Source: a virus (Duplodnaviria > Heunggongvirae > Uroviricota > Caudoviricetes). Taken from it: 64,000 bases of DNA. The notes beneath the pieces are model-generated. The model saw only the letters and a program-made list of their open reading frames with translations. It was not told the DNA's origin and did not search any database. Location of the stretch: the IMG/VR virus record IMGVR_UViG_2877962823_000010; one strand, written 5' to 3'. Both the position numbers and the translations under genes were made by a program. Below are positions 45,464 to 50,016 of the stretch, in pieces. Numbering within the stretch: position 1 is the first letter of the stretch; each line of letters opens with the position of its first letter.

Positions 45464-45602
45464 GACCTTTCTCCTTCTGCATCAGCTTCACTTTTTCCAA
45501 CTCAGCCCGGAATCGACCAGGCTGCTTGAAGCTGGACAGGAAGCGATCACGTAGTATGTGTTTGTGAATTTTGTCCTGGTAAGGACTGAGTTGTTTTGTC
45601 AT
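45456..45602 (-). CDS. Small hypothetical protein (48 aa)
   Basis: Manually found ORF between cII and O-like gene. Confidence 0.25.
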
Positions 45603-45634
45603 AATTACTCCTGTGGATTGATCCAGTAATTCCC

Positions 45635-45931
45635 TCAGAATTGCATATCAATTTGCTTAAAATCCTCGGTGGCGGCCGGGGATTTTTTCTTTGTGATTTC
45701 ATCAAGCGCATACTTAAAAGCCCTGCTAATCGGACTGATGTCTGATGCCATTCCGAAAGCACACAAGACCGAAGCAATAAATCTCCAGTCCGTTCTGCTT
45801 ATCTTCGATTCATGACAGCCAATCATCTTTGCCAGACCGCGCTGGGTAAGCGTTGACAGGTTGATGAGTAAATCAGTTTCAGCGCGATCAATTTCTCGCT
45901 GTGATAGTTTGCTGTAACTTGTTTGTTCCAT
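45635..45931 (-). CDS. cII: CII-like transcriptional activator
   Basis: C-terminus [17 protein letters not shown] resembles lambda CII KKRPAATERSEQIQMEF; HTH in the middle. Confidence 0.65.
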
Positions 45932-46017
45932 TTCTTAAGATTTCCAATAGTGAATAGCTAGTTGAAAGGTATGCGTGGAAACGCATATGGCCTTAGTTGG
46001 TCAGATATCTTGGGACT

Positions 46018-46062
46018 CGCTTTTCAGCGACGTAGGACGAATGTCCGTTGTTACAAAGAGCG
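46018..46062 (-). promoter_or_regulatory. nutR candidate (boxA cgctctttgtaa; boxB cgctgaaaagcg)
   Basis: Minus-strand boxA-like motif and GAAAA-loop hairpin just downstream of cro. Confidence 0.4.
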
Positions 46063-46072
46063 GCTCCGCTTA

Positions 46073-46288
46073 TTAAGCGGCTTTGTGCTCCGGCGGGAAC
46101 ACGTCATCAAGACTTACTTTTGCGCCTAACTTGTTTAGACACGCAACAAGAGCACGGCATGTTTTAAGGTCTGGGAAGCGACGACCAGATTCCCAATGTC
46201 CGATAGCTCCCTGTGTGCATCCAACTGCCTTAGCAAGTGTTGTTTGAGAGATATTCAGTGACTCTCGATATTTTCGTAGGTTGCTCAT
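46073..46288 (-). CDS. cro: Cro-like HTH repressor
   Basis: 71 aa from MSNLRKY with ggaggg SD; divergent from cI. Confidence 0.7.
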   Translation of the reverse strand: MSNLRKYRESLNISQTTLAKAVGCTQGAIGHWESGRRFPDLKTCRALVACLNKLGAKVSLDDVFPPEHKAA

Positions 46289-46399
46289 ATGCCCTCCATA
46301 GTAACCACGAATAAAAAAATACAATATGTACTTCTCAAATACAAGTAAAAATACACATTGTGCATGGATGGTTCCAGTACAGAGCGTAATAATAAGGAC
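46289..46399. promoter_or_regulatory. Divergent PR/PRM promoter-operator region
   Basis: AT-rich intergenic region; agtacatat motif shared with pL region. Confidence 0.45.
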
Positions 46400-47059
46400 A
46401 TGAAAATGAAATGGTATGAACTGGCTAGATCCAGAATGAAAGAGCTCGGCATAACTCAAGAGAAGTTAGCCGAAGAGCTAGGTATGACGCAGGGTGGAAT
46501 TGGACACTGGTTGCGCGGATCTCGTCATCCATCTCTTAGTGATATTGGTGTGGTGTTTAAATACCTTGGTATTGATAACATATCATTCAACCACGACGGG
46601 ACATTTTCACCTGTTGGCGAATACTCATCGGCCCCAGTTAAAAAACAATATGAGTACCCTGTTTTTTCTCATGTTCAGGCTGGGATGTTCTCTCCAGAAC
46701 TCAGAACCTTTACCAAAGGTGATGCGGAGAGATTGGTAAGCACAACCAAAAAAGCCAGTGACTCTGCATTCTGGCTTGAGGTTGAAGGTAACTCAATGAC
46801 CGCACCAACAGGTTCCAAACCTAGTTTTCCTGACGGGATGTTAATTCTGGTTGACCCTGAGCAAGCTGTTGAGCCCGGCGATTTCTGCATAGCCAGACTT
46901 GGTGGTGATGAATTTACCTTCAAGAAACTGATCAGGGATAGCGGTCAGGTGTTTCTACAACCACTAAACCCGCAATATCCAATGATCCCATGCAATGAGA
47001 GTTGTTCCGTTGTGGGGAAAGTTATCGCCAGCCAATGGCCTGAAGAGACGTTTGGGTAA
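46400..47059 (+). CDS. cI: CI repressor (lambda-type S24 C-terminal domain, distinct N-terminal HTH)
   Basis: C-terminal ~130 aa match lambda CI ([51 protein letters not shown]...); N-terminal domain differs. Confidence 0.9.
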
Positions 47060-47560
47060 AGAGGATAGATGGAGTTTAATGGCCATGAGTATCAAGCGGT
47101 CAAAAAGAAGTTCATCTATTCATTGAAAGCATAAGGCCATCTGAGTATATCCGTAATGATCTGGATATTGTCTATAACATCAATGACCGGACGATAGATA
47201 TCGGTGAGCAGCGTCCTGTATGGCAGGGTGAGGCAGGTGAAAAAACGTCCTGCCATCAACAAGAATCAAGTGCATCCGCTCTCTGGACAGATGGAAAATT
47301 TATTGGATGCAAAAAGATATGAAATAACACCTGTATAGCACGGAGCTTTCTCTGACCGATGCACTTGAAGTTGTTAGGGCTGACCCAGCCTGCTGTTTCT
47401 TTAGGTAAGAGAAAAGAGATTTAGGAGATGAAAGGTCGCAGAGGTGCGGCCTTTTTTATTGAGAGTGGATCTTGAACGGAAATTCTCAAGACTTGAGTCT
47501 TGCATGCAAATCAATTCCTGGATAAACTCGATCTGAGTCAATAACTTAGAGAGAGAGCAA

Positions 47561-48082
47561 ATGGCAAAGTCAAACGTTAGCGTGCAGGCATTCAAGGACT
47601 TCCTTGAAGAGCTTATGTCGCTGAACATAATGAAGGAGGCCACCGCTCGAAATTTAAAAAACTCATCCGCTCGCCTCTTAACGGTAGTCCAAGAAGAGGA
47701 AATGGGTGATGTTACTCAGCTTGATGTGAATGAGCTTGCCGAGCGATACATCAACGCAACTGAGCCGAAGCCTAGCGACAGCAGCATTACTGCATATAAA
47801 AGCCGCATGGAAAGTGCAATCAAAAAGTTTGTAGCTTTCCAGTCTGGTGAAGAAATCCCATACACTCCGATTGACAAAGAATCCAGTGAGGAAAAAGATT
47901 TGACTGGCGAACCAACAAAAGTCGAAGGCAAGGCTAATGCACTTCATACCTATGATCTTCCAGTAGTTCTTCGACCTGAATCAGGGGTTACAGTAACGAT
48001 TAAAGGCATTCCTAACGATATCACAAACGAAGAAGCCGAACGCATCTCTTCAATTCTGAAGGTTTACGTTCGGCCTCAATAA
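47561..48082 (+). CDS. Hypothetical protein at the rexAB-equivalent position
   Basis: 173-aa ORF downstream of cI, upstream of a t_imm-like terminator and pL. Confidence 0.5.
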   Translation: MAKSNVSVQAFKDFLEELMSLNIMKEATARNLKNSSARLLTVVQEEEMGDVTQLDVNELAERYINATEPKPSDSSITAYKSRMESAIKKFVAFQSGEEIPYTPIDKESSEEKDLTGEPTKVEGKANALHTYDLPVVLRPESGVTVTIKGIPNDITNEEAERISSILKVYVRPQ

Positions 48083-48255
48083 TGCAAAAGCATTCAGCAC
48101 AATGTCCAACTCCCCAGTCCGACATTGATGCTGTTTAACCAGAGCCTCCAAAAGGAGCCCTTGTTAAGGTACACAATATTTGCGATGTAACCTTAGCGCG
48201 TCTGGTACATTTTTTCAAGCGGTTGTAGGGCTGCCGCCAATATGAGAAAACACAG

Positions 48256-48378
48256 ATGTCTACATACAATTTGAATGACCAATTCGATCGAGAAGTTCAT
48301 GTGAATGCCTATGAACGGATAAGGCATGGAAATCTTGAACATGTGTGTGAGCATTATCGCTCAAGGCCACACCGCTAA
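48256..48378 (+). CDS. Small ORF (40 aa) before terminator
   Basis: Manually found ORF MSTYNLNDQFDREVHVNAYERIRHGNLEHVCEHYRSRPHR. Confidence 0.2.
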   Translation: MSTYNLNDQFDREVHVNAYERIRHGNLEHVCEHYRSRPHR

Positions 48379-48383
48379 TCATC

Positions 48384-48412
48384 AACCCGGCCTCCATGCC
48401 GGGTTTTCTTTT
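48384..48412 (+). terminator. Rho-independent terminator (t_imm analogue)
   Basis: aacccggc-ctccat-gccgggtt hairpin followed by ttctttt. Confidence 0.55.
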
Positions 48413-48592
48413 CCTCTCGCCCAAAAAAACACATAACCAATTGTATTTATTGGAAAATAAATAGATACAACTCACTAAACAACGCAATTCTGATCTCTCC
48501 TTACATCGCCGAGGCAATACACCCACGCTAAAAAACAATACTATTAAATACAAAGCGTTGTAAAAAAACGCCCCGTTTTAGAACAAATTGTA

Positions 48593-48621
48593 TTGACCAA
48601 GTGAAGTACATATCGTACTAT
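48593..48621 (+). promoter_or_regulatory. pL candidate promoter with overlapping operator-like palindrome
   Basis: TTGACC, 17-bp spacer, TACTAT; spacer contains agtacatatcgtact. Confidence 0.45.
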
Positions 48622-48667
48622 TTAACCATCAGCAGGACGCTGGAAGCCAAATGGAACAGACTGGCAG

Positions 48668-48712
48668 GCTCTTTAAACAACGTCGACTCTCGACTACGTG
48701 GCTGAAAAGCCA
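48668..48712 (+). promoter_or_regulatory. nutL candidate (boxA gctctttaaa; boxB tggctgaaaagcca)
   Basis: boxA-like motif then GAAAA-loop hairpin about 100 bp upstream of N. Confidence 0.5.
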
Positions 48713-48810
48713 GATCACCCAACCACATAAGCTGTGGGATGCAATGCCGAAGCAACCGTCTCAGGAGGAGCTTCGAGATTGCATCGCCAAAGTTTATTCG
48801 GGAGGAATCT

Positions 48811-49083
48811 ATGTCCAGAAAAACAGAATTTAAAGGCACCGCAGCTTCTCGCCGTAGAGCTCGTCGCGCAAACCTGCAAAGTCAGGAGGCGATTAGCTCC
48901 GACAAACTACACAGGCCAACCCCATCACGAGTGGTCTTACAATGCAAACGCAAACCAGCAATGAGAGCAGAAGTAATAACACTGACAACGTTGACCAGAA
49001 AATATGAAGGCTCAACTTGTCTTCCAAATGTAGCTCTTTACGCGGCAGGCTACCGTAAATCCAAACAACTGACAGCAAGATGA
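48811..49083 (+). CDS. N: N-like antitermination protein
   Basis: 90 aa with N-terminal arginine-rich motif TAASRRRARRANLQ; gggagg SD; downstream of nutL. Confidence 0.6.
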   Translation: MSRKTEFKGTAASRRRARRANLQSQEAISSDKLHRPTPSRVVLQCKRKPAMRAEVITLTTLTRKYEGSTCLPNVALYAAGYRKSKQLTAR

Positions 49084-49141
49084 CTTGTGTTGGTCGCCAG
49101 AAAATGAAATTAGGCAGCAAACCACTTATTTGAGGTGATAT

Positions 49142-49393
49142 ATGGAATTTCATGAAAGTGCGATTTGTGATTTTCGCGCTAACGCAAATTCAGTAAAACC
49201 ACAGCCAATTGCAGTTCTTTTTAAAACAATGGGTGCGTGGGCTGTTTTATGCTTCGCCGCTGACGACACTGACGCAAGAATGGCAATAGGACAAGAGATG
49301 GAGATGGACCCGACAAACGATGAATTCATAATTTATGGCGCTCCATCTAATTACTTACTTGATACCTGCAACATTTACAACAAGGCTGCCTGA
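49142..49393 (+). CDS. Hypothetical early protein
   Basis: 83-aa ORF in pL operon. Confidence 0.4.
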   Translation: MEFHESAICDFRANANSVKPQPIAVLFKTMGAWAVLCFAADDTDARMAIGQEMEMDPTNDEFIIYGAPSNYLLDTCNIYNKAA

Positions 49394-49575
49394 TGGTGGC
49401 CTTTATTTTTGGCATAAACAACAGAATAAACACAGCACTGTGTATTCATTCCAACGAGTGAATACACGGAGCAATGTCGCTCGTAACTAAACAGGAGCCG
49501 ACTTGTTCTGATTATTGGAAATCTTCTTTGCCCTCCAATGTGAGGGCGATTTTTTATCTGTGAGGATATGAACAG

Positions 49576-49944
49576 ATGTCAAACATCAAAAAATACATCA
49601 TTGATTACGACTGGAAAGCATCAATAGAAATTGAAATCGACCATGACGTAATGACAGAGGAAAAACTTCACCAGATTAATAATTTCTGGTCAGACTCTGA
49701 ATACCGACTCAATAAACACGGCTCTTTATTAAATGCTGTATTAATCATGCTGGCGCAACATGCTCTGCTTATAGCAATTTCAAGCGACTTAAATGCATAT
49801 GGTGTTGTGTGTGAGTTCGACTGGAATGATGGAAATGGTCAGGAAGGATGGCCTCCAATGGATGGTAGCGAAGGAATAAGAATTACCGATATCGATACAT
49901 CAGGAATATTTGATTCAGATGATATGACTATCAAAGCCGCCTGA
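49576..49944 (+). CDS. ea10: Ea10-like protein
   Basis: 122 aa; position and recalled similarity to lambda Ea10. Confidence 0.5.
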   Translation: MSNIKKYIIDYDWKASIEIEIDHDVMTEEKLHQINNFWSDSEYRLNKHGSLLNAVLIMLAQHALLIAISSDLNAYGVVCEFDWNDGNGQEGWPPMDGSEGIRITDIDTSGIFDSDDMTIKAA

Positions 49945-50016
49945 GCGCGGCGTTACCGCATACCAATAACGCTTCACTCGAGGCGTTTTTCGTTATGTAT
50001 AAATAAGGAGCACACC

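Follow-up and report, generated by a model that had tools for sequence, protein, structure and literature searches.

ECs1184 of Sp5-type Shiga toxin phages, a stand-alone core-binding-domain protein that may belong to a prophage addiction module

We studied the gene at positions 47561-48082 of a 64,000-nucleotide (nt) stretch of tailed-phage DNA, IMG/VR record IMGVR_UViG_2877962823_000010 (hereafter the window, numbered from its first letter). It lies between the repressor gene cI and the antiterminator gene N, and its 173-amino-acid (aa) product appears in public records as H0093, ORF b63 or ECs_1184 (ECs1184, open reading frame (ORF) 23 of prophage Sp5), always as a 'hypothetical protein'. 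ECs1184 is a stand-alone core-binding (CB) domain protein and no recombinase, nor is it a relative of RexA/RexB, Stk or BstA. The partners that are conserved with it, a structured RNA and a micro-ORF, are found downstream of the gene and not upstream. The reading that we favor, with a rough probability of 0.38, is by inference that of an antitoxin-like regulator of an addiction module, which may possibly act as an abortive-infection or exclusion device too. Earlier work had left ECs1184 as a prophage gene that seemed to be essential, for reasons not explained; the fold assignment, the identity of a DUF3024 remnant in the gap upstream, the boundaries of the cassette, the conserved structured spacer and the strict coupling to a micro-ORF are new here.

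Positions 47060-48600 were 100% identical to VT2-Sakai (Sp5), Stx2 II, Nil2, phage 1717, a Shiga toxin 1 (Stx1)-converting phage and about 40 further Stx phage records. Copies of ECs1184 with at least 99% identity were present in 233 of 5426 complete Escherichia coli genomes, and in all 233 the cassette around the gene was intact at the same level of identity; EDL933 was absent among the carriers listed. The mobile cassette spans about 1 kb (47433-48413) and consists, from left to right, of a terminator, a putative promoter, ECs1184, a structured RNA with a U-run, the micro-ORF H0092 and a second terminator. Its features, with the domains of the protein, are the following:

47430-47460 (+), intrinsic-terminator-like hairpin (stem 47430-47455, free energy -15.9 kcal/mol, z score -4.04) and U-run
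47500-47528 (+), putative sigma-70 promoter of ECs1184: TTGCAT (47500-47505), 17-nt spacer, TAAACT (47523-47528)
47561-48082 (+), ECs1184 (H0093, ORF23), 173 aa, ATG at 47561, stop codon at 48080-48082; acidic (isoelectric point 4.85) and soluble, no membrane segment
47582-47842, residues 8-94 of ECs1184, core-binding (SAM-like) four-helix domain
Residues 101-129 of ECs1184, disordered and variable linker
47948-48058, residues 130-166 of ECs1184, C-terminal domain of a beta-hairpin and a helix
48095-48215 (+), structured spacer RNA: P1 hairpin 48095-48133, multibranch P2 48138-48206, U-run 48210-48215
48256-48378 (+), H0092, a 40-aa His-rich micro-ORF (PHROG 21154), annotated in AP000422 and dropped from RefSeq
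48384-48415 (+), intrinsic terminator at the right cassette boundary: 8-bp GC-rich stem (48384-48405) and T-run, free energy -14.3, z score -4.75

The 173-aa ORF is a real gene and more than a chance reading frame, as four lines of evidence indicate. Its homologs formed 44 protein clusters with 41-99% identity in Escherichia, Cronobacter, Salmonella, Yersinia, Morganellaceae and Serratia. A profile search extended these to 653 clusters (50% level), all of them full length (165-200 aa) and with the same two-domain layout, i.e., two conserved blocks in the family alignment with a variable, indel-rich linker between them. The N-terminal 100 codons differed from the Salmonella copies by 13-18 synonymous and 8 non-synonymous changes. 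Lastly, the protein was detected by mass spectrometry (TRAPP) in the RNA-associated proteome of uninduced enterohemorrhagic E. coli (EHEC) Sakai at a false discovery rate of 0.065 (PMC7618764, a 2025 paper in NAR).

Searches of ECs1184 against Pfam, NCBIfam and PADLOC gave nothing significant, and single-sequence and profile searches of PDB sequences gave no match; in PHROGs it belongs to family 2602, whose function is unknown. The initial annotation, which recognized no family for the protein, was thus right in that no sequence family names it, but the protein does have a recognizable feature: the N-terminal domain adopts the core-binding fold of integrases, likened to the CB domain of lambda Int (2oxo), to 3nrw and to XerD. 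Beyond this domain there is only the disordered linker and a 44-aa beta-hairpin-helix, and the catalytic domain of tyrosine recombinases (R-K-H-R-H/W-Y) was not found, with no PF00589 match in the 173 aa. ECs1184 therefore resembles the tyrosine recombinases in its core-binding domain and differs from them in having no catalytic one, so that it could bind nucleic acid but not recombine it. The recombinase-derived prophage regulators MrpR/SroF are grouped with the CB-domain proteins among the closest known systems.

The stretch 47837-47990, comprising the linker and the first C-terminal strands, was hypervariable, with about 55% identity to the Salmonella copies between flanks of 88-100%, a pattern suggestive of a specificity region under recombination or diversifying selection. 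On the minus strand, a promoter-like site, TGGACA-18-CATTAT (48108-48079), and a terminator-like hairpin (47684-47667), both of them consensus matches only, could yield an antisense RNA of about 400 nt covering the 3' two-thirds of ECs1184.

We surveyed 77 loci by tblastn for what follows the gene, and every homolog examined with more than about 30% identity had a micro-ORF 150-175 nt downstream. These micro-ORFs were of three kinds: H0092, in E. coli and Salmonella; a basic 57-aa protein (PHROG 33859), in Proteus, Erwinia and many viral contigs, one copy being beside a homolog of 31% identity; and a 47-aa CxxC...CxC protein, zinc-ribbon-like, in Serratia and others. In position and spacing, H0092 corresponds to the 57-aa and 47-aa micro-ORFs of the relatives. 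A search with the H0092 protein returned three clusters only; the Salmonella cassettes encode versions that are 92-95% identical, with 5-6 synonymous versus 2-3 non-synonymous changes. Among family members only the most distant were without a micro-ORF, and one of them precedes a 305-aa protein with a sub-threshold match to the SAP domain (E 0.004, below the Pfam cut-off). The coupling also appeared in the reverse direction: when viral contigs were searched with the 57-aa protein, a member of the ECs1184 family ended about 155 nt upstream in 32 of 35 loci. In the other three the place of the family gene was taken by an XRE helix-turn-helix (HTH) gene and an M78 (ImmA/IrrE) peptidase gene, a known regulator pair.

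Three viral contigs, L110-L112 (e.g., L111:1454-2650), carry a 49-aa relative of the 57-aa protein behind an XRE HTH and M78 pair, with a spacer of about 145 nt that has no R1 RNA (see below). A single family of micro-proteins was considered and rejected: when H0092, the 57-aa protein and the 47-aa protein were compared pairwise by hhalign, no pair had a probability above about 0.1%. The neighboring gene ECs1180 was rejected as a partner because it is absent from most loci with ECs1184 homologs. Neither H0092 nor the 57-aa protein matched a toxin, antitoxin or defense family in Pfam, NCBIfam, PADLOC or PDB sequences.

The spacer between ECs1184 and H0092 is a conserved structured RNA, and beyond its U-run come a further hairpin, a weak Shine-Dalgarno sequence and the H0092 start. 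The single-sequence fold of 48085-48175 had a z score of -5.16. The consensus structure of six sequences comprised 54 pairs, 7 of them with compensatory changes, including three in the closing helix of P2, and positions 48137-48235 were 96-100% identical to the Salmonella copies, a conservation above that of the coding DNA. Spacers of the 57-aa type had an analogous fold with 24 consensus pairs, 10 of which showed compensatory changes. A covariance model built on the latter, R1, recovered loci on which it had not been trained, with E 1e-25 for the Serratia spacers, 1e-25 to 1e-35 for further viral loci, and values over all untrained loci from 1e-25 to 1e-47. A single RNA family for both spacer types was not borne out, as R1 scored the Salmonella Sp5-type spacers at E of about 5 and had no match in the window. 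The two types are analogous in position and architecture, homology not being demonstrated, and the 47-aa micro-protein was found with both. Rfam had no match at E <=1 in 45500-50000 and none at the spacers of five relatives. We read the spacer RNA as an attenuator-like leader or a 3' untranslated region, and the U-run after P2 suggests, by inference, that read-through into the micro-ORF is attenuated.

At L065:2770-2936, L003:6519-6686, L007:6534-6701 and some 30 other loci, a conserved structured RNA of about 155 nt separates a gene of the ECs1184 family from a 57-aa or 47-aa micro-ORF. The loop of P1, about 14 nt within 48104-48124, occurred in both orientations, as CCAACTCCCCAGTCC in Sp5 and L042, whereas the Salmonella cassettes and L050 have the reverse complement; this hairpin-loop flip, noted in the window and in L009, L021, L042 and L050, has occurred more than once. 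Together with the CB fold, the invertible loop might suggest that ECs1184 is a degenerate accessory of recombination, an architectural or directionality factor with which a site-specific recombinase would act, for instance on the P1 loop itself. We consider this very improbable: the loops of small hairpins can flip in the absence of any recombinase, the cassette has no linked recombinase gene, and the family is full length and conserved, with no sign of a decaying fragment.

Upstream of ECs1184, the hairpin at 47430-47455 was matched by none of 200 shuffled sequences, and the stem of the 47430-47460 element was invariant across the Salmonella, Proteus and Serratia copies. In the alignment columns of the putative promoter Proteus has TTGCAA-17-TAGAAT, and the flanking TTGAGTC/CTGAGTC repeats and short palindromes, which are candidate operators, were conserved across genera; the 5' leader was conserved as well. 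In more distant relatives, palindromic CGATCGAT repeats surround the -35 position. Given its flanking terminators and a conserved promoter region with repeated and palindromic motifs, the cassette looks like an autonomous transcription unit. The initial annotation had raised co-transcription with cI, as for rexAB; this looks unlikely, because a strong terminator hairpin and a conserved promoter-like region separate cI and ECs1184, which is probably transcribed from a promoter of its own rather than as part of the cI operon. In the divergent cassettes of L055, L057, L063 and L065, promoters lie within GATC-rich palindromes, e.g., TTCATCGATCGATGAA ... TTGATCGATGAA, about 100 nt before the start codons of the homologs; these could be operators or Dam/SeqA-sensitive sites.

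A fold of the DNA-binding type and expression in the lysogen from an apparent promoter of its own would also suit a transcription factor for host genes or other prophage genes (lysogenic conversion), with the micro-ORF as an unrelated passenger. This alternative does not account for why the gene is so strictly coupled to an RNA and a micro-ORF, nor for the lethality of the deletion (see below) in K-12, which is without EHEC virulence loci; we hold it to be improbable.

The extent of the cassette was given by BLAST against the fetched loci, in which homology with P22-like phages of Salmonella (Oslo and others) began at about 47433 and ended at about 48413. These phages have different cI/cro alleles, and more generally cassettes that are 77-100% identical sit beside unrelated cI/cro alleles. 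Identity to the Salmonella copies was mosaic, about 92% in the N-terminal domain, about 55% in 47837-47990 and 96-100% in the non-coding 48137-48235. The cassette is also known from prophages of Salmonella, Proteus and Serratia. Relatives outside immunity regions were found at a tail-region moron site in Erwinia, in early-left operons near DUF977, DUF1627 or methylase genes, in an island with Type IIG restriction-modification, PLD-helicase and PIN genes, and in an Rhs neighborhood; members with 33-46% identity were located away from any repressor. The association with unrelated repressor alleles and with non-immunity sites points to a self-contained function, not one tied to the cI of Sp5. Flanking terminators, a predicted promoter, sharp mosaic boundaries and a protein detected in uninduced cells are the features of a moron, and we class the cassette as a lysogen-expressed moron or addiction-type module in an immunity-region hotspot.

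The most distant cassette examined, L013, has 31% identity and a micro-ORF of the 57-aa type. It adjoins a gene (L013:7885-8544) for a 219-aa protein whose C-terminal half matches the PADLOC candidate PDC-M14B (E 3.5e-9), with an Rhs-repeat gene on the other side.

Genetic evidence on ECs1184 comes from Mondal et al. (2016), who constructed marker-free, in-frame deletions of all function-unknown genes of Sp5 in an MG1655 lysogen (PMC5155283). The deletions were made by sacB allelic exchange and kept 9 nt at each ORF end; 43 mutants were obtained, and only ORF23 (ECs1184) and ORF21 (ECs1180) were undeletable (PMC5155283). Such a design spares the promoter, the RNA and H0092, and hence the defect points to loss of the ECs1184 protein itself; a rex-like accessory gene, being dispensable, would not be expected to behave so. 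Literature searches by accession numbers and neighboring locus tags gave nothing beyond PMC5155283 and PMC7618764, and no phage-exclusion or phage-challenge test of ECs1184 was found in the literature searched.

The main rival explanation of this lethality is a lysogeny-maintenance factor, in the manner of Hex of phage 434 or of a second repressor, whose loss would kill the lysogen by runaway induction. Such a factor might shield cI from RecA-stimulated cleavage, counter a phage antirepressor or repress a lytic promoter. The authors of the deletion study suggested a role of this sort (PMC5155283), and the close homologs are constantly in the cI-N position. Nevertheless, we regard it as doubtful: the cassette combines with unrelated cI/cro alleles, the 33-46% members occur even beyond the immunity regions of prophages, the partners conserved with ECs1184 are not cI but the RNA and micro-ORF behind it, and ECs1184 appears insulated from the cI transcript. 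Moreover, a hex deletion is obtainable and merely raised spontaneous induction.

In the addiction reading, which we prefer, the cI-N slot of Sp5 would have received a self-contained cassette of three parts, expressed in the lysogen, with ECs1184 as its large subunit. The protein would repress its own promoter and/or act on the downstream leader RNA, and would hold the micro-protein in check in the manner of an antitoxin, while the U-run behind the spacer RNA would limit read-through into the micro-ORF. If ECs1184 alone were lost, a toxic H0092 would be released and the lysogen killed, as by an addiction module. This reading draws on the nucleic-acid-binding type of the domain, the operator-like repeats, the linked micro-ORF behind an attenuator-like RNA and the lethality of the single loss. 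Addiction modules often double as abortive-infection defenses, and this cassette could likewise serve as an abortive-infection or exclusion device.

The cassette resembles type II toxin-antitoxin systems in several features: an upstream gene with a DNA-binding-type and a second small domain, a small gene downstream on the same strand, and operator-like promoter repeats. The published failure to delete ECs1184 suggests that losing the upstream gene alone would be lethal, as the loss of an antitoxin is. The XRE and ImmA/IrrE (M78 peptidase) pairs are alike in that they replace the ECs1184-family gene before a 57-aa-type micro-protein in three loci. Unlike type II systems, the cassette has no known toxin or antitoxin family, its putative effectors are of 40-57 aa and come from three unrelated families, and a structured RNA of 150-175 nt with a U-run lies between the genes.

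Several points weigh against the addiction reading. ECs1184 and H0092 have no toxin, antitoxin or defense match in Pfam, NCBIfam or PADLOC; H0092 is neutral and hydrophilic, unlike known toxins, and the three micro-ORF families are not detectably homologous. The structured 150-175-nt spacer is itself unlike type II toxin-antitoxin operons. ECs1184 is acidic, which is unusual for a DNA binder, and in the polynucleotide kinase (PNK) assay its signal was similar to that of the GFP control, so that it was described as 'not a strong RBP' (RNA-binding protein) (PMC7618764). The putative promoter agrees with the consensus at 7 of 12 positions and was missed by the promoter scan. Finally, ECs1180 was undeletable too and is unrelated to the cassette; the lethality could for this reason reflect a general fragility of lysogeny in the region.

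ECs1180 (H0090; 49142-49393, plus strand), just downstream of N, encodes an acidic 83-aa protein of PHROG 2471, function unknown, with one borderline hydrophobic stretch (KD19 1.68, residue 22). Beyond the Sp5-type phages, it was not found together with homologs of ECs1184.

A bolder proposal is that of a new three-component prophage system, in which a CB protein without catalytic domain and a leader or attenuator RNA would together control interchangeable micro-protein effectors, for addiction as well as abortive infection; we offer it as a tentative possibility, at odds well below even.

The surroundings of the cassette are the following:

cro (-)
46406-47059 (+), cI repressor with HTH and S24 peptidase (Pfam Peptidase_S24 1e-28, HTH_3 2e-10; AP000422 annotation)
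47069-47402 (+), DUF3024 pseudogene, 81% nucleotide identity to the intact DUF3024 gene 3' of cI in 933W, phi24B, P27 and SE1
48546-48621 (+), oL operators and pL (AP000422 annotation by offset; promoter scan TTGACC-17-TACTAT at 48593-48621)
48667-48707, nutL
48811-49083 (+), N antiterminator (Pfam N_peptide 3e-32)

After N come ea10, cIII, kil, gam, bet and exo. The coordinates of each part bear out the layout that the initial annotation had described, cI, gene X, terminator, pL, nutL and N, and the synteny with the rexAB position of lambda holds. Its description of the slot as a site of exclusion genes also agrees with the literature, in which the cI-N interval is a hotspot of lysogen-expressed exclusion genes, namely RexAB, Stk of 933W, Hex of 434 and BstA of BTP1 (PMC8585504; PMC3564112).

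The initial annotation had further supposed that the 500-bp gap before the gene might hold remnants of a partner gene. There is indeed a gene remnant there, the DUF3024 pseudogene, in which tblastn revealed two frameshifts (three frames) and one in-frame stop, and which is decayed in all Sp5-type phages (compared with L020:3009-3350). It is, however, no partner of ECs1184: DUF3024 accompanies cI and occurs with Stk too. In 933W the DUF3024 gene is followed by a RuvC-like gene and stk, and in Proteus prophages an intact DUF3024 gene is followed by the ECs1184 homolog.

Given this position, ECs1184 could be an ordinary, dispensable gene for superinfection exclusion or abortive infection, as the initial annotation had it, and its non-deletability a technical or cis-acting artifact. 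The slot hosts RexAB, Stk, Hex and BstA, the architecture is moron-like, the hypervariable 47837-47990 resembles the specificity regions of defense proteins, and distant members lie in defense-island-like neighborhoods, one of them beside the PDC-M14B-like gene. We think it rather unlikely, as ECs1184 has no enzymatic or membrane effector domain by domain searches and hydropathy (maximum 0.72, and no hydrophobic segment in either ECs1184 or H0092) and no PADLOC match, and as the deletion design was clean: marker-free, in-frame and successful 43 other times.

The occupants of the same slot also differ from ECs1184 one by one. Like RexA/RexB of lambda, ECs1184 lies between cI and pL/N on the strand of cI, is expressed in the lysogen and has a terminator before pL; unlike them, it has no sequence or domain similarity and no membrane protein partner, so that only the genomic position matches, and it has an apparent promoter of its own behind a terminator, whereas rexAB is co-transcribed from pRM. 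Hex of phage 434 is in the same slot and has been linked both to exclusion and to how stable lysogeny is. Going by its description, however, it is translated from the pRM-cI mRNA and overlaps cI, and its loss raises induction and is tolerated; ECs1184 cassettes, in contrast, join many cI alleles and non-immunity sites. Stk of 933W and BstA of BTP1 share the hotspot downstream of cI, and 933W shares the cI-proximal DUF3024 gene as well. Stk is a kinase, and BstA has a KilA-N domain and a DNA self-immunity element; ECs1184 has neither domain, with no Pfam match to KilA-N or to protein kinases.

The Sp5-type Stx phages carry the toxin genes of O157:H7, and the stability of their lysogeny governs the release of toxin. 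Of the early genes, just ECs1184 and one other resisted removal from the Sp5 lysogen, a puzzle now nine years old, and the integrase core-binding domain without an enzyme provides a first structural handle on it. If the addiction or defense reading is true, the cassette would represent a new protein-RNA-microprotein architecture among toxin-antitoxin and phage-defense systems. If the three-component system is real, Shiga-toxin prophages would be locked into their host by it, and both the stability of the lysogen and the induction of Stx phages would be affected.

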